Assembly: GCA_050329585.1 (NCBI GenBank)
Contig: JBHJOR010000032.1
Span: 1,228-65,227 of the forward strand
Direction of reading: 5' to 3'
Source of the DNA: Candidatus Methylacidiphilales bacterium
GTDB lineage: Bacteria > Verrucomicrobiota > Verrucomicrobiia > Methylacidiphilales > JBCBYL01
DNA: 64,000 bases
In this document: piece after piece, positions 7,398-19,388 of the stretch
How the letters are laid out: every line of letters begins with the position of its first letter
How positions within the stretch are numbered: the first letter of the stretch is position 1
Notes under the pieces: generated by a model
Told to the model about the DNA's origin: nothing
What the model saw: the letters and a program-made list of their open reading frames with translations, nothing else
The model's database searches: none
Program-made: the position numbers and the translations under genes

Positions 7398-8195
7398 CTA
7401 AAAGACACTCCTGATGATGCGATCTGTAATGGAGCGCTCCGGGATATCCAGCCCAGACCAGAAGCTCAACGCCTCGGGCCAGATACGATCGTTGATGGTT
7501 CTACGAAATGTTTTCGGGTCATCATACAACACCTCAGGCATCCTGATGATTCGCATTAAATGGGGACTGGATTCTGAGTCGCTGTCGTTTTGATGAGAAT
7601 CGGACGCCGAAGTGACCTTTTCCGATGAAATAAAAACCTGCACTGGAATGCCCATTTCCCGCACCAATATCTGAGCGGGAATCACGTCTGGATCCAAAAA
7701 CGTCACGCCCGAAACCCTTTTGTTTTTACGAACCACCGCGATAGCTGCGCGTGCGTTTTCTCCCACCGACAAGATGACCACTTTTTGCATTTGAAAGCGC
7801 GGACTTAAATTAAAGAAGCGCACCCCGGTTTCTATGGCATCCTGTAGTGACTGGGGGGATGTCCCCTCCATACACTGACGGGCCTCTTCTTCATTGGAGG
7901 GCACGCGACCGTTAAACAAGTCCACCGCCAGGGACAACACACCTTCTGCTGCCAGTCGGTCACAGAGCAGGCGCACCGATGGATCGAGCCCGTGACGGCC
8001 ATGCACGACCACCAACCCGGCCACCGGCGCGGTCTTCGGAATAGAGAGATAGCCCACCTCATCGGTGCCAAAATCTCTCAGAAAAATCAGCTCCCCTTCA
8101 TACTTCGGCGGCACCAGAGGCTCTGCCGATACCCTCATCGTTATGGCCAGCATCAGCCCGGCCCCCATCAACAAACAGCCCGAAATTCGCATCAT
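7398..8195 (-). CDS. Secreted dienelactone-hydrolase-like alpha/beta-fold protein, probably non-catalytic
   Basis: Signal peptide, then GLVVVHGRHGLDPSVRLLCDRLAAEGVLSLAVDLF resembling the DLH family. No G-x-[SC]-x-G nucleophile elbow seen (ILSVGENARA). Its ATG overlaps the trpG stop (TGATG). Confidence 0.5.
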   Translation of the reverse strand: MMRISGCLLMGAGLMLAITMRVSAEPLVPPKYEGELIFLRDFGTDEVGYLSIPKTAPVAGLVVVHGRHGLDPSVRLLCDRLAAEGVLSLAVDLFNGRVPSNEEEARQCMEGTSPQSLQDAIETGVRFFNLSPRFQMQKVVILSVGENARAAIAVVRKNKRVSGVTFLDPDVIPAQILVREMGIPVQVFISSEKVTSASDSHQNDSDSESSPHLMRIIRMPEVLYDDPKTFRRTINDRIWPEALSFWSGLDIPERSITDRIIRSVF

Positions 8196-14039: not shown

Positions 14040-14498
14040 TCAATCTTGAGGAGAGTTCTTCTTGGTTGAGAGAAATCTTTCGAATGCTTCCAACGTTTCC
14101 GGACTCACATGGTGTTCGATACCTTCGGCATCTGCCGCCGCCACCTCGGGAGAGATTCCCAAGGCGATGAGGAAGGCGATGACTTTTTCATGGCGGATCC
14201 GTGCCTGCGCGGCTTTTCGGCGGCCCTGCGGTGTTAGAAAAATAGAACGGTAAGGTTGGGTGGATACCAGACCTATTTTCTGAAGGCGCTGAATGGTGCG
14301 GATGACGGTTACATGGGTAACGCCAAAGTGTCTTGCCAGATCGGTGGCCCGGGCTTCTCCGGTGCTTTCGATCAGTCCGGCAATGGCCTCGACGTAATCC
14401 TGCGCCTTTTCTTCTGCATGTTGTTGGCGTGTTCTTTTCTGATGCAGAGCGGAAGAATCCACATCAGGTGCCCGGAGTTTACCTCGTGATAGAACCAT
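14040..14498 (-). CDS. mntR: DtxR/MntR-family metal-dependent transcriptional repressor
   Basis: QDYVEAIAGLIESTGEARATDLARHFGVTHVTVIRTIQRL (wHTH) and EGIEHHVSPETLEAFERF (metal/dimerisation domain). ATG at 14498 preferred over the TTG at 14531. Confidence 0.85.
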   Translation of the reverse strand: MVLSRGKLRAPDVDSSALHQKRTRQQHAEEKAQDYVEAIAGLIESTGEARATDLARHFGVTHVTVIRTIQRLQKIGLVSTQPYRSIFLTPQGRRKAAQARIRHEKVIAFLIALGISPEVAAADAEGIEHHVSPETLEAFERFLSTKKNSPQD

Positions 14499-14524
14499 TA
14501 CTAACAATGTAAAAATGATTCCAC

Positions 14525-14553
14525 TTGACAAGTACCTGTTTAATTTCTATCAC
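14525..14553 (+). promoter_or_regulatory. Candidate sigma70-type promoter for the metal-uptake operon
   Basis: TTGACA (14525-14530), 17-nt spacer, TATCAC (14548-14553), in the 140-bp mntR/ytgA divergent spacer. Confidence 0.35.
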
Positions 14554-14638
14554 GTAATCCAAATAGTAGCACAGGCTACAAATAATAATACGAATTACGG
14601 ATGTCTCATTTACTTAAACCAACCCGGAACTAAAAACG

Positions 14639-15574
14639 ATGATGAAAACACGACGTATTGGCACGGCTGTATGCCTTATGGCGGCACTAGGCCTAGGATT
14701 GATGATGATGCCCTGTAGCGCAGAACAAGAAGGTAAAAAAATACAGGTCGCAGCCACCCTGGGAATGGTTGCGGATTTGGTCAAATCAGTCGGGGGCGAC
14801 CGCGTGGTGGTTGATCAATTGATGGGGCCGGGCGTTGACCCTCACTTGTATAAACCCACGTCCTCTGATTCGATCCGGCTCGGCAAAGCGGATGTCATTT
14901 TCTACAGTGGCTTGATGCTCGAGGGGCGTATGGGAGATCTCTTTGCCAAGATGGCCCGGGGTGATAAAAAAGTTTATCCAATCACGGAATCGGTGCCGGA
15001 AAACTTGCTTTTAGAGCCGGAAGAATTTGAAGGACACTACGATCCACATCTCTGGTTGGATGTCAGCCTCTGGGCCGCAACGATTCCCACCATTGTCAAA
15101 GGATTGAGCGACGTGGATCCGGCAGGGACCTCTGTTTATGAACAAAACGGCGCGACTTTAACGAAGAAAATGGAAGCACTACATACTTGGTGTCAGCAGA
15201 AAGCGGCCGAACTTCCGGAGAATAAGCGTATCCTGATAACCAGCCACGACGCTTTTAATTACTTCGGGCGGGCCTATGGATTCAAGGTGGTTGCCTTGCA
15301 GGGGGTCTCCACGGTTTCCGAGGCCGGACTATCCGACATCGCCAGTTTGGTGGACTTCATCAAGAAGCAGGAGGTCAAAGCCATTTTTGTCGAAACCAGC
15401 GTCAATCCGGCTGCGATCCAGCGGGTCGCCAAGGATGCAGGGGTGTCCATCGGCGGCGAGCTGTTCTCCGATGCCATGGGCCATCCCGGGCAAATGCATG
15501 AAGGTTTCGATACCGGCACGTACGAAGGCATGGTGCGCTACAATCTAAACACCATCGTTAACGCTTTAAAGTAA
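14639..15574 (+). CDS. Metal (Mn/Zn/Fe) ABC transporter substrate-binding protein, TroA/ZnuA cluster-9 family
   Basis: Signal peptide; DPHLYKP, DPHLWLD and ITSHDAFNYF motifs typical of the family. Confidence 0.9.
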   Translation: MMKTRRIGTAVCLMAALGLGLMMMPCSAEQEGKKIQVAATLGMVADLVKSVGGDRVVVDQLMGPGVDPHLYKPTSSDSIRLGKADVIFYSGLMLEGRMGDLFAKMARGDKKVYPITESVPENLLLEPEEFEGHYDPHLWLDVSLWAATIPTIVKGLSDVDPAGTSVYEQNGATLTKKMEALHTWCQQKAAELPENKRILITSHDAFNYFGRAYGFKVVALQGVSTVSEAGLSDIASLVDFIKKQEVKAIFVETSVNPAAIQRVAKDAGVSIGGELFSDAMGHPGQMHEGFDTGTYEGMVRYNLNTIVNALK

Positions 15575-15628: not shown

Positions 15629-16423
15629 GTGCTATCAAGTCATGACATGAGCACTCAAAACGCGGCAACACCTCCGCCGTTGGAAGTTCACGACCTGACT
15701 GTCGCCTATCATAAAAAGCCGGTTCTTTACGGTATTGATCTGTCTGTTTCAGAAGGAAATCTGGTGGGCATCATCGGGCCCAACGGAGCGGGTAAATCAA
15801 CCCTCATCAAAGCGGTGATGGGTCTGCTGCCCGCGTCCAGCGGTTGGGTCAAGATTTTCGGGAAATCCTACAAAGAGAATTGCCATCGGGTGGGATACCT
15901 CCCCCAGCGCGAATCCGTGGACTGGGATTTCCCCGTCAACGTGATGGATGTCGTGCTGATGGGTCGCTATGGACACCTGCGACTGGCCCAACGTCCCACT
16001 AAAAACGATCGGGAAATCGCCCGCCAGTGCCTTGAAAAAGTGAAGATGCTGCCCTTTGCCAACCGTCAAATCGGGAACCTCTCCGGCGGGCAGCAGCAAC
16101 GTGTCTTCTTAGCCCGTGCTCTGGCCCAGGAAAGCGATCTCTATCTGATGGATGAACCCTTTGTCGGGGTAGATGCTGCCACCGAATCGGCCATCATCGA
16201 CATTCTTCGTGAATTAAGATCTCGTGGCAAGACGCTGCTGGTGGTTCATCACGATCTGCCCAGTGCCCGTGACTATTTTGACCAGTTGATACTTTTGAAT
16301 ATGCGACTGGTGGCCTACGGATCCACGCCCAAGGTGTTTACTCCGGAGTTACTGCAGACCACCTACGGTGGACGTCTCACCATTCTTTCAGAAGTGGTTC
16401 AGACTATTGGAGCGCAGCCATGA
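15629..16423 (+). CDS. Metal ABC transporter ATP-binding protein
   Basis: Walker A GPNGAGKST, signature LSGGQQQRV, Walker B LYLMDEP; overlaps the next gene by 4 nt. The start may be the ATG at 15647. Confidence 0.92.
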   Translation: MLSSHDMSTQNAATPPPLEVHDLTVAYHKKPVLYGIDLSVSEGNLVGIIGPNGAGKSTLIKAVMGLLPASSGWVKIFGKSYKENCHRVGYLPQRESVDWDFPVNVMDVVLMGRYGHLRLAQRPTKNDREIARQCLEKVKMLPFANRQIGNLSGGQQQRVFLARALAQESDLYLMDEPFVGVDAATESAIIDILRELRSRGKTLLVVHHDLPSARDYFDQLILLNMRLVAYGSTPKVFTPELLQTTYGGRLTILSEVVQTIGAQP

Positions 16424-17874
16424 GGTGGTATAGCTTTGCTGCGGGGTTCGTCCTGCTTTTACTGCTTCCCGAAGCGGCCCATGCGGCCCGCATTAATGAG
16501 TTATCCGACTCCACTCTGTGGGATCGGACTGTTCGCTTTTTCACCTTTCAAGATCCCTCGCTTCGTTTTGCATTATTAGGATCTATGCTGCTTGGCATCG
16601 CCTGCGGGCTAATGGGTGTATTTCTGGTGGTGAGAAAATTGTCCTTGATGGGCGATGCGTTATCGCATGCGGTTCTTCCCGGAGTGGCTCTCGGATTTCT
16701 TTGGAACATGAGCAAAGATCCTGTGGCTATTTTCCTGGGAGCAACGCTGGTCGGTCTTCTGGGGGCTGGAACGGTCCAACTCATCCGCAACACCACCCGG
16801 CACAAAGAAGATGCGGCACTGGGATTTGTGCTGGCCTCCTTTTTCGGAGTTGGCATCTGCCTCTTCACAATGATTCAAAACCTGCCCGGCGGGAACAAAA
16901 GCGGTCTGGATCAATTCATGTTTGGCCAGGCCGCTGCACTTGGTCAAAGCGAAGTGATCCTGCTAGGGGTGGTAGCGGCACTAGCTTTGGGTTCGATATT
17001 TATTTTTTACAAAGAGTATGGCATCACCAGTTTTGATTCCGGTTTTGCCCGTTCCTTGGGTATGCCGGTTCAACTCTTTCACTATAGCTTAATGCTCCTT
17101 TTGGCCTTTTCTATTGTGGCTTCACTACAAGCGGTTGGAGTGGTCTTAGTCTCAGCCATGCTGGTCATACCGGCAGCAGCGGCCTTTTTATTAACCGATC
17201 GGCTGGGATCCATGTTGCTGCTTTCCGCTTTATTTGGACTTTGCGCGGGTGCGATGGGGACTTTTTTTTCATTTGTGGGGAGGAATCTACCCACAGGCCC
17301 GTTCATGGTTCTGGCGGCGGGAACGGTCTTTGTATTGGCACTGTTCCTCGGGCCCAGACACGGTATTCTGGCCCGCTGGTGGCGGCAGCGATCCCGCTCG
17401 GCGCGCATCCAGCGGGAGAATACGCTAAAAGCTATTTACCATGTTCTGGAGGATGATCTCTTTCGCGGGGAACAAATCAGTCTCCGCGAGCTGGCGGAAC
17501 GCCGTCGGGAGACACTGGAAGATGCCCGACACCAAGTGGGAAAGATCTGCCGTCATGGCATGGCAACGCTGGTTGGAGATGCTGTAGCCTTTACTCCTGC
17601 GGGTTGGCAGCGGGCTTGTGAGATTGTTCGCAATCACCGCCTATGGGAACTCTACCTGACGCATGCCGCCCACATCGCAGCGGATCATGTTCACGAAGAC
17701 GCGGAAAAAATTGAACACATCCTCGGTGAGGACAGCGTTAGGCAGTTGGAAAAGCGCCTCAATTATGCGCGCAGAGACCCTCACGGTAAACTCATCCCCG
17801 GCCTTGAAGACATGAGCGGTGGCACGGGCCCTCTGACGACGCGGCGGACCACCGGATTTGGAGTTTCTTATTAA
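16420..17874 (+). CDS. ABC-3 metal permease fused to a C-terminal DtxR-like repressor (YtgC-YtgR-like)
   Basis: The first ~320 aa are a polytopic ABC-3 permease. The last ~160 aa read TLKAIYHVLEDD...ISLRELAERR...NHRLWELYLTHAAHIAADHVHEDAEKIEHILGEDSVRQLEKRL, i.e. wHTH plus DtxR metal-binding/dimerisation domain. Confidence 0.85.
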   Translation: MRWYSFAAGFVLLLLLPEAAHAARINELSDSTLWDRTVRFFTFQDPSLRFALLGSMLLGIACGLMGVFLVVRKLSLMGDALSHAVLPGVALGFLWNMSKDPVAIFLGATLVGLLGAGTVQLIRNTTRHKEDAALGFVLASFFGVGICLFTMIQNLPGGNKSGLDQFMFGQAAALGQSEVILLGVVAALALGSIFIFYKEYGITSFDSGFARSLGMPVQLFHYSLMLLLAFSIVASLQAVGVVLVSAMLVIPAAAAFLLTDRLGSMLLLSALFGLCAGAMGTFFSFVGRNLPTGPFMVLAAGTVFVLALFLGPRHGILARWWRQRSRSARIQRENTLKAIYHVLEDDLFRGEQISLRELAERRRETLEDARHQVGKICRHGMATLVGDAVAFTPAGWQRACEIVRNHRLWELYLTHAAHIAADHVHEDAEKIEHILGEDSVRQLEKRLNYARRDPHGKLIPGLEDMSGGTGPLTTRRTTGFGVSY

Positions 17875-17879
17875 TTCCT

Positions 17880-18857
17880 ATGTCATCCTTCATTCCCCCA
17901 TTTGATTGGCACGGCGTCTTGATCCAGCCGTGGGCGACTGATTATTCCATCACCCTCTGGATTGTGCTGATGGGTTTTTTTGTTACCACCGCGTGCGGGC
18001 TGGTGGGGAATTATCTCTTGCTACGTCGCATGGCTCTGGTGGGCGATGCCATAAGCCACAGCATTCTGCCGGGACTGGTCATATCGTTCATGATTTTCAA
18101 ACAAGCTACACTCTGGGTGGGTTTCGCCGGCGCCTTCGCGGCAGCCATTGTTACCGTTTTATTAATCGAATTCATTCACCGGCAATCACGGGTAAAGCCC
18201 GACGCTGCGATTTGTATCGCCTTTACCACGCTGTTTGCCTTGGGGGTCATCCTCATGAGTGCGATGGAAAGCAAGGGTGCTTTTCACATTGACTCGGATA
18301 GTATTTTGTATGGCGAAATTGCCTTTGTGCATCTGGAGCCTTTTGTGGTCTGGAATGAGTGGGCTCTCGGTCCCCCCTCCGTTCTGAGGATGGGGGCGAC
18401 TTGTCTGGTCTTGTTCACAGCCATCCTCCTTTTTTACAAAGAGTTACTGATCACTTCATTTGATGCGGATTTGTCCAAGTCTCTGGGAATGAGCACCGGG
18501 ATTTGGTATTACGGGTTAATGGGTGCTTTGTCTTTGGCCATTGTGTCAGCTTTTGAGGCCGTGGGTGCCATTCTGGCGGTGGCCATGCTGATCGTGCCAC
18601 CGATGTTTGCGGGTCAACTTTCCCAGCGACTGCCCGTTCGGTTGATGCTGACCGTTTTACATGCGGCTCTGGCCTCACTGATAGGTCTGCATCTTTCGGT
18701 ATGGCTCAAGTGTTCAACCGCTGGTGCGATGGTGGTCGCATCCGCTCTGCTGTTCTGTTTGGCGTGGATCCACTCCGGAATACGAACCATGATCTTCCGG
18801 TTCCACTCCAGAACCGAATTAAGTCCGGCACTCGAGCAGGGTGTTAAGGCGAACTGA
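17880..18857 (+). CDS. ABC-3 metal transporter permease (second permease)
   Basis: 325 aa polytopic; MALVGDAISHSILPG motif of the ABC-3 family. Confidence 0.9.
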   Translation: MSSFIPPFDWHGVLIQPWATDYSITLWIVLMGFFVTTACGLVGNYLLLRRMALVGDAISHSILPGLVISFMIFKQATLWVGFAGAFAAAIVTVLLIEFIHRQSRVKPDAAICIAFTTLFALGVILMSAMESKGAFHIDSDSILYGEIAFVHLEPFVVWNEWALGPPSVLRMGATCLVLFTAILLFYKELLITSFDADLSKSLGMSTGIWYYGLMGALSLAIVSAFEAVGAILAVAMLIVPPMFAGQLSQRLPVRLMLTVLHAALASLIGLHLSVWLKCSTAGAMVVASALLFCLAWIHSGIRTMIFRFHSRTELSPALEQGVKAN

Positions 18858-18866
18858 TGTGGAAGC

Positions 18867-19388
18867 TCAGGCTTTGGTTTCTCCACCAGCCTCTTCATGA
18901 ATAGACTGGGTGGCCTCTGCAAGACGAAGACGATCCATCTTCTCCATGGGAAGGCACATCAGGAGTTCCAACCGTCTCGACATCTCCGCCGCGACTTTGT
19001 TGAAAAGGATCCAACGAATCTTCTCATCGATTTCTTCATTCGCCGGATCCTTAAAACCCCAATGCGCCGCAATGGGTTGCCCAGGCCATACCGGACATGA
19101 CTCTTTGGCGCGATCACACACCGTGATAACAAAATCAAATTCCGTCCCCTTGAATTCGTCCCATGACTTGCTGCGCGCGCCCTGCGGATCCACTTTCATG
19201 TGCTCCAGAGCACGAAGTGCCAAAGGGTGGACTTCTCCCCGGGGGTGTGAGCCCGCACTAAAGGATTCAAAACGACCCAACCCAATCTTTTTCATTAAGA
19301 ATTCCGCCATGATACTACGTGCGGAATTTCCGGTGCAGAGAAAGAGAATTTTGTGTTTTTGAGTGGGGTTTTCAGAGGAGGTGCTCAT
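18867..19388 (-). CDS. arsC: Arsenate reductase, LMW-PTPase family (thioredoxin-coupled type)
   Basis: KILFLCTGNSARS P-loop (CX5R) plus a downstream Cys pair in TVCDRAKESCP. Confidence 0.85.
   Translation of the reverse strand: MSTSSENPTQKHKILFLCTGNSARSIMAEFLMKKIGLGRFESFSAGSHPRGEVHPLALRALEHMKVDPQGARSKSWDEFKGTEFDFVITVCDRAKESCPVWPGQPIAAHWGFKDPANEEIDEKIRWILFNKVAAEMSRRLELLMCLPMEKMDRLRLAEATQSIHEEAGGETKA

Follow-up and report, generated by a model that had tools for sequence, protein, structure and literature searches.

The permease gene at 16420..17874 (+) of the window, as we call the whole 64,000-nucleotide stretch analysed here (contig JBHJOR010000032.1, from a Candidatus Methylacidiphilales metagenome-assembled genome, or MAG), encodes a protein in which the membrane subunit of an ATP-binding cassette (ABC) metal importer runs directly into a DtxR-type regulator module. 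We find the gene to be a true YtgCR-type fusion, part of a Tro/Ytg-like importer operon, and the architecture is known and widespread. A stand-alone MntR is encoded divergently at the same locus, and on comparative grounds we hold with fair confidence that the conserved operator of the operon is read by MntR and not by the fused module. We further suggest, tentatively and by analogy, that the fused module may be a metal sensor that works while attached to the transporter.

The earlier note on this DNA, made from the letters alone, had described a first permease of 484 aa whose last ~160 aa form a DtxR-type winged helix-turn-helix (wHTH) followed by a metal-binding/dimerisation domain. The open reading frame (ORF) agrees with the stated length; Pfam supports the permease and dimerisation domains, and alignments to solved structures, AlphaFold and Foldseek support the wHTH. 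Pfam places an ABC-3 domain (PF00950, E=2e-68) at aa 46-310 and an Fe_dep_repr_C domain (PF02742, E=2.7e-21, 75.8 bits against a cut-off of 27) at aa 392-460 (17593..17799, +). The wHTH half (aa 333-391; 17416..17592, +) was not matched by PF01325 at E<=0.01, even when the C-terminal domain was scanned alone; it aligns from helix 1 on with the solved DtxR, IdeR and SloR chains, and with a Mn-dependent repressor (5zr4/5zr6). An AlphaFold2 prediction using 57 homologues gives this half three helices and a two-strand wing, followed by a long dimerisation helix, with block-mean predicted local distance difference test (pLDDT) values of 85-93 across aa 321-410; the recognition helix (H3) is aa 366-378 and the wing aa 379-391. 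Foldseek matched the C-terminal part to IdeR, DtxR, DR2539 and SloR, and the membrane part to PsaBC of Streptococcus pneumoniae (7kyp, E=4e-12). After the dimerisation domain there is no SH3-like/FeoA C-terminal domain, merely a 24-aa tail, and the fused module therefore resembles the two-domain MntR/TroR-type members of the family and not DtxR proper.

Reading the metal site from these alignments, we find it complete in the fused module, with nitrogen and oxygen donors only. The motif NHRLWELYL...HVHEDAEKIEHILGE, which had been singled out before, is indeed present and supplies the ligand positions: H406 aligns with DtxR H79, E410 with E83, H425 with H98, E429 with C102, E432 with E105 and H433 with H106. 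Among 81 species-level verrucomicrobial sequences, H406, E410, H425, E432 and H433 are invariant, and position 429 is Glu in 78 and Asp in 3. E333 and N334 are likewise invariant in that set, as are the helix 1 motif ENxLK (ENTLK in the window) and DPHG, and the signature of the verrucomicrobial metal/dimerisation domain reads HRLWExYL / VHxxAExxEH / DPHGxxIP. In an alignment with DtxR, E333 falls at E9 and N334 at M10, a primary-site ligand. Ligand sets of nitrogen and oxygen alone are typical of Mn(II)/Fe(II) sensors, which does not settle the metal that is sensed here; the chlamydial repressor YtgR has Glu at position 102 and a reported Fe(II) response.

In the fused module, conservation is distributed in a way that is the reverse of that in a conventional repressor. 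We compared pairwise identity over the 13 genomes (12 loci and the window) that have both an MntR and the fusion. In MntR, identity is 0.81 for helix 1, 0.84 for helix 2 (H2) and H3 together, 0.87 for the wing and 0.65 for the dimerisation domain, which is the usual picture of a repressor whose DNA-reading parts are the most conserved. In the fused module, helix 1 (0.85) and the dimerisation domain (0.84) are conserved, whereas H2 falls to 0.56, H3 to 0.30 and the wing to 0.34. A free repressor does not usually have so conserved a dimerisation domain, and even pairs of modules with ~90% identical dimerisation domains are just 45% identical over H3 and wing. At the positions of DtxR S42, Q43 and R47 the fused module is hypervariable, and a conserved Glu/Asp stands in place of P39 and of T40. 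The same reversal is present in both of the operator classes described below. In the Chlamydiaceae, where DNA binding has been shown experimentally, the fused module has identities of 0.78 in H2, 0.56 in H3 and 0.69 in the dimerisation domain. The ratio of nonsynonymous to synonymous substitution rates (dN/dS; Nei-Gojobori, pooled over 33 independent pairs) follows the same course, at 0.20 for H3 and wing, 0.12 for H2, 0.06 for helix 1 and 0.05 for the dimerisation domain. The values of 0.20 and 0.05 indicate that the reading head is relaxed about fourfold and is not decaying.

The neighbouring regulator is of a conventional kind. The earlier note had placed a divergent stand-alone DtxR/MntR gene at 14040..14498 (-), and its product scores 176.6 bits against the NCBIfam model of E. 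coli-type MntR (NF008273, cut-off 153) and matches both PF01325 and PF02742, as expected of a two-domain DtxR-family member. A mechanical ORF call extends to 14531 with a TTG start (14040..14531), and the ATG at 14498 is the likely start, since it fits the orthologue alignment better. MntR orthologues (60-71% identity) adjoin the binding-protein gene in 13 related loci, and the helix-turn-helix is 84% identical across the 13 genomes. As had been proposed, we also aligned the fused domain with this neighbour; the two are 23% identical over 69 aa. The DtxR-type domains at the locus are therefore old paralogues, and an origin of the fused domain by local duplication of MntR can be rejected.

Between mntR and the binding-protein gene lies a divergent spacer of 140 bp (14499-14638). 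From direct reading and the alignment of 12 such spacers, we predict the promoter of the transporter operon at 14525..14553 (+), with TTGACA at 14525-14530, a 17-nt spacer and TATCAC at 14548-14553. TTGACA is invariant in the 12 spacers, with a -10-like element downstream; a consensus promoter scanner did not list the predicted site, and overall it called no more sites than it did in shuffled sequence. Just downstream of the predicted transporter -10, and adjoining the predicted mntR promoter, is the palindrome GTAGCACAGGCTAC (GTAGC-N4-GCTAC, 14566..14579), a candidate operator common to both divergent promoters and the sole exact copy of this pattern in the window. Its core, TAGC-N4-GCTA, and its spacing equal those of the enterobacterial MntR consensus AACATAGCnnnnGCTATGTT (PMC1698941). 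The flanks differ, ACATAGC...GCTATGT in the E. coli box and TGTAGC...GCTACA in the window, as does the target, which is mntH in E. coli and, by prediction, an ABC importer here.

In the 12 spacers that adjoin an MntR orthologue, TTGACA, the -10-like element and TGTAGC-N4-GCTACA are the only conserved elements. Exact TAGC-N4-GCTA was found in 12 of 64 regions upstream of the binding-protein gene as against 1 of 378 coding control windows, and, when up to one mismatch was allowed, in 35 of 64 as against 15 of 378. An automatic inverted-repeat finder reported nothing in the spacer, because the arms of the box are only 5 bp long; the box itself was picked out by eye and by pattern search. No second conserved palindrome was seen in the 12 aligned spacers. 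TCTG(A/G)CAGA, which lies upstream of the -35 element, was considered as a second operator and found insufficient, being confined to close relatives and lying within the mntR 5' leader. A search for riboswitches and other RNA elements turned up none, the single weak Rfam match being far below the gathering score.

Where the E. coli-type MntR is missing, the usual box is another one, GTTAG-N6-CTAAC (AAAGTTAGC-N4-GCTAACTTT), and the same is true of most loci that have no adjacent regulator. It is present at each of the four loci where the adjacent gene encodes a B. subtilis-type MntR (PRK03902 model; recognition helix ISQASVTNMIQRL), and absent where the adjacent MntR-like gene has a different recognition helix. 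Across the Verrucomicrobiota, the type of box therefore co-varies with the type of stand-alone regulator and not with the fused domain. The GTTAG/CTAAC half-site resembles the half-site of the DtxR/IdeR iron box, with a different spacing. In three of the loci examined, the second box occurs twice, ~46 bp apart, at -99 and -53 (L082), -98 and -52 (L075) and -90 and -46 (L019), counted from the start of the binding-protein gene. At a further locus (L003:8505-9275), a three-domain DtxR (PF01325, PF02742 and an FeoA/SH3-like domain) stands directly downstream of the second permease and replaces the divergent MntR. With E. coli-type MntR, B. subtilis-type MntR and DtxR-plus-FeoA found beside the same fusion, three kinds of regulator accompany it across lineages.

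The junction of permease and regulator (aa 311-332, GPRHGILARWWRQRSRSARIQR; 17350..17415, +) is itself conserved. P312, R313, H314, G315, W320, W321 and R322 are invariant or nearly so, and a conserved basic segment, ARWWRQRSRSARIQR, leads into DtxR helix 1 with its E333 and N334. AlphaFold runs a continuous helix from 316 to 345, through the junction and into helix 1. The earlier note had proposed a search for a protease site or linker here; no flexible or disordered linker is predicted, there being no low-confidence stretch at the junction in the AlphaFold model. An internal translation start that would free the DtxR domain was considered and rejected, as codons 311-345 contain no in-frame ATG, GTG or TTG. 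With neither linker nor internal start, the release of a free domain would need proteolysis within a structured region.

Taken with homology and comparative genomics, these results suggest a scheme in which the divergent MntR most likely binds GTAGC-N4-GCTAC (14566-14579) and sets transcription of the operon, and in which the fused module would stay on the transporter as a cytoplasmic metal sensor. Bound metal would link E333/N334 of helix 1 with the dimerisation domain and so stiffen both the module and the helix that connects it to the permease, and the signal would pass to the membrane domain, giving feedback on transport in the manner of trans-inhibition by analogy with MetNI and ModBC. 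The module would not be a sequence-specific repressor of the operon. That it might act while attached is suggested by the missing linker, the conserved junction, the lack of an internal start and the unusually conserved dimerisation domain. We hold with somewhat less assurance the fuller proposal, that the verrucomicrobial fused DtxR module is no longer a transcription factor and is a built-in sensor that shuts the importer as cytoplasmic Mn/Fe rises. MetNI and ModBC are trans-inhibited ABC importers whose regulatory domains are on the ATPase and are not DtxR folds; the window's domain is on the membrane subunit, and the likeness is one of functional analogy only. The earlier note had asked how two DtxR-type domains at one locus might divide their labour, and a partial answer can now be given: covariation ties MntR to the operator, and the role of the fused module as an attached sensor stays tentative.

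Several observations weigh against this proposal. H3 and wing are under purifying selection (dN/dS 0.1-0.2), so the head keeps some function. Model confidence is high for the wHTH fold, which has been retained, and H2 keeps a conserved AERRRET motif, which could contact phosphates. An operator that was lineage-specific and fast-evolving would escape our alignments. There is one DtxR module per heterodimeric transporter, and DtxR-family proteins are normally dimeric. The gating of the transporter by the module is proposed by analogy only, and the permease part of the AlphaFold model is poor (predicted template modelling score 0.52). Finally, in Chlamydia, YtgR is released from the fusion by cleavage and its DNA binding is metal-dependent (PMC5599777, PMC6504234), with cleavage and DNA binding also documented in a further study (PMC7755916).

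Those chlamydial findings are the foundation of the main rival explanation, in which the YtgR model applies unchanged: the fusion would be cut, the released module would dimerise on metal and repress its own promoter or another regulon, and MntR would add a second input specific to another metal. We regard this as possible, if rather doubtful. It is in keeping with the end-to-end alignment with YtgCR, the shared Pfam architecture and operon order, the conservation of every metal-ligand position, the confidently predicted wHTH fold and the purifying selection on H3 and wing. It does not sit well with a recognition helix and wing that are 0.30-0.40 identical although the operators are conserved among the same genomes, nor with the covariation of those operators with stand-alone MntR types and the single conserved palindrome of the 12 spacers. 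The junction without a predicted linker, the conserved Glu/Asp at the P39/T40 positions and the hypervariable Q43 position also speak against it. In Chlamydia, the reported YtgR product of 28-30 kDa (PMC5599777) implies a cut within the permease.

DNA binding might also occur without cleavage, with a membrane-tethered module that binds specifically or otherwise and either holds the locus or nucleoid at the membrane or represses from there. Full-length YtgC repressed a reporter in E. coli, and a review mentions membrane-anchored repression as possible (PMC5599777); the absence of a linker and of an internal start would suit such a role. We nevertheless consider it unlikely, since the reading head is variable and there is one module per transporter in a family that binds DNA as dimers. 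The mean net charge from H2 to the wing is -1.1, as against +4 to +5 in MntR, which is a weak test of DNA binding because DtxR itself has a net charge of 0. That the C-terminal module is a decaying, functionless remnant is very improbable. The relaxed head would fit decay, but the metal/dimerisation domain has a dN/dS of 0.03-0.05, five of its six ligand positions are invariant, the head itself is at 0.1-0.2, and 79 of the 80 best loci described below, from several named verrucomicrobial lineages, retain it as a fusion.

The last alternative, that an assembly or frameshift error joined two separate genes, had been raised in the earlier note itself and can be dismissed almost entirely. Both domains are present in all of the best 120 protein homologues (69-83% identical, ~485 aa), for which the name given by the Joint Genome Institute (JGI) is 'ABC-type Mn2+/Zn2+ transport system permease subunit/Mn-dependent DtxR family transcriptional regulator', and the same single ORF occurs in Chlamydiae. 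We also scanned one genome per GTDB species and took the best 80 loci, which are 55-82% identical to the window protein; the fusion is a single continuous ORF in 79 of them. The exception, which is the one point in favour of an artefact, is a long-read MAG (L071:6872-8435) in which the permease and DtxR parts are out of frame, with the junction at ~8028-8035. This frame break may be a sequencing indel, or else the fusion is naturally split here, which would be rare. A protein identical to that of the window already exists as an NCBI record, under 'Candidatus Methylacidiphilales bacterium' MAG.

The best 80 loci are mostly labelled Verrucomicrobiota and include Terrimicrobiaceae, Chthoniobacterales, Pedosphaera/Limisphaerales, Opitutales and Verrucomicrobiales. 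The 592 contig matches confirmed by tblastn cannot all be claimed as fusions, as one of the search patterns lies within the permease. An exhaustive phmmer search with the C-terminal 165 aa gave 511 cluster representatives at E<=1e-10. Among the best 150 of these 511, 54 are full-length fusions and at least 31 more have detectable permease sequence; many others of the 150 start in the last membrane helix. The nearest relatives of the DtxR module are therefore themselves fusions. Seven contigs (L014, L021, L030, L034, L043, L073 and L003) bear this typically verrucomicrobial operon, 58-78% identical to that of the window, under the record labels Enterobacteriaceae, Klebsiella pneumoniae, Akkermansia muciniphila, Bifidobacteriaceae, Chitinophaga pinensis or Desulfobulbus propionicus. 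The non-verrucomicrobial labels, at least, probably reflect mislabelled or contaminated MAG records.

The source MAG is of the order Methylacidiphilales, and thus of the Verrucomicrobiota and the Planctomycetes-Verrucomicrobia-Chlamydiae (PVC) group, and the earlier suggestion that the Chlamydia YtgCR architecture recurs in another PVC lineage is borne out. BLASTP of the window protein against Chlamydia trachomatis L2 YtgCR (sequence from Supplementary Data 5 of PMC7755916) aligned residues 43-469 with 6-451 at 30% identity (E=7e-66), a span that covers the permease, the junction and the DtxR module, and the YtgCR of Waddlia gave 31% identity (E=2e-60). C. trachomatis YtgCR (CT069/CTL0325, in ytgABCD) is likewise an ABC-3 permease with a C-terminal two-domain DtxR-like module. 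The two share the signature HRLWExYL / VHxxAExxEH / DPHxxxIP, a Glu at the DtxR C102 position, the gene order of their operons and the Pfam pattern, including the missing match to PF01325. As the DNA-binding chlamydial protein also goes without this match, we rejected its absence as an argument against DNA binding. Unlike the C. trachomatis locus, the window has a stand-alone MntR and an MntR-type operator. In the Verrucomicrobiota the head evolves fast and its recognition helix begins with acidic residues; the Chlamydiaceae instead retain a conserved segment, KYQEYFGxKxFPR, and a net charge of +3 to +7. The window permease has no WWW motif, unlike that of C. trachomatis, and the verrucomicrobial fusions are extended at both ends, by a signal-like segment at the N-terminus and a GYG tail at the C-terminus. 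A common architecture does not establish a common mechanism. According to a 2017 review of chlamydial iron (PMC5599777), in its account of Thompson et al. 2012, permease-repressor fusions occur in 11 bacterial phyla, and the architecture was thus on record beyond Chlamydia before this analysis.

The locus offers a natural comparison, in that a free-living lineage here combines a YtgCR-type fusion with an ordinary MntR and an operator that can be recognised as MntR-type. The reversed conservation yields a cheap and concrete hypothesis, that the fused domain regulates the transporter and not the promoter. If this is true, YtgCR-type fusions would have to be reinterpreted in many phyla, including the poorly understood cleavage step in Chlamydia, and the role of uncleaved YtgCR there would be reopened. 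It would also represent a new mode of control of metal ABC importers, trans-inhibition through a metalloregulator fold fused to a membrane subunit.

The remaining genes of the operon are those of a cluster A-I importer, and the order given earlier, binding protein, ATPase, permease, permease, is confirmed by the ORF map and by Pfam. The periplasmic metal-binding protein (14639..15574, +; Pfam ZnuA, E=3e-77) is TroA-like; its best solved relative is Treponema pallidum TroA (1toa, E=3e-67), and the DPH (twice), HDAF and SDAM motifs are identical in the alignment. We take these motifs to bear the His-His-His-Asp ligands of TroA. As far as the motifs can be read, such a protein would be compatible with Mn, Zn or Fe, the metal specificity not being legible from them. 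The tro operon has two ABC-3 permeases and, at the same locus, a short DtxR-family regulator without an SH3 domain, as does the window. In T. pallidum (TroABCD-TroR), the operon ends with a gene of its own for the regulator; in the window, one module is fused to the first permease and MntR is divergent.

The ATPase (15629..16423, +; Pfam ABC_tran) has the ATPases of Mn and Mn/Fe transporters as its nearest NCBIfam models, every score being below the cut-off, and its stop codon and the start codon of the fused-permease gene overlap in ATGA. The second permease, in the YtgD/TroD position (17880..18857, +; PF00950, E=1e-45), has no fused domain, and it comes after the fused permease in all related loci whose contig reaches so far. 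Related loci keep the gene order of the operon, apart from a binding-protein gene that is displaced in some of them.

The permease part of the fusion (16420..17349, +) comprises a signal-peptide-like N-terminus (aa 1-~25) and the ABC-3 domain. Judged from the residues, the stretch at aa 1-42 (16420-16545) has a signal-peptide-like segment, MRWYSFAAGFVLLLLLPEAAHA, followed by ARINEL; the consensus of homologues ahead of the ABC-3 domain is AARISEL. At the other end, the tail (aa 461-484; 17800..17871, +) is a variable stretch that ends in TGFG in the window and in xGYG(K/R) in relatives, and AlphaFold gives aa 469-484 a pLDDT below 50. By eye, most of the 81 verrucomicrobial fusions carry the motif (T/V/I)G(Y/F)G(K/R) ~20 residues past DPHGxxIP, which in the window is TGFG behind the variable, low-confidence stretch. 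The motif is absent, also by eye, from every Chlamydiae sequence examined, and it may be a docking or recognition motif.

An outer-membrane beta-barrel gene lies between the binding-protein and ATPase genes at several related loci, at L016:5062-5949, at L031:4990-6216 and at the same position in L040, L051, L062, L075, L035, L063, L019 and L024; the labels of these loci include Limisphaerales, Verrucomicrobiales, Luteolibacter and Nibricoccus. The barrel belongs either to the OprB porin family (PF04966, E=1e-56) or to PF13557 (E=2e-22), and it may be an outer-membrane metal channel of the same uptake route. The window locus is without this inserted gene. At the far end of the operon, a convergent gene for a low-molecular-weight phosphatase/ArsC-like protein (18867-19388, -; PF01451, E=7e-15) ends 9 bp from the end of the second-permease gene.

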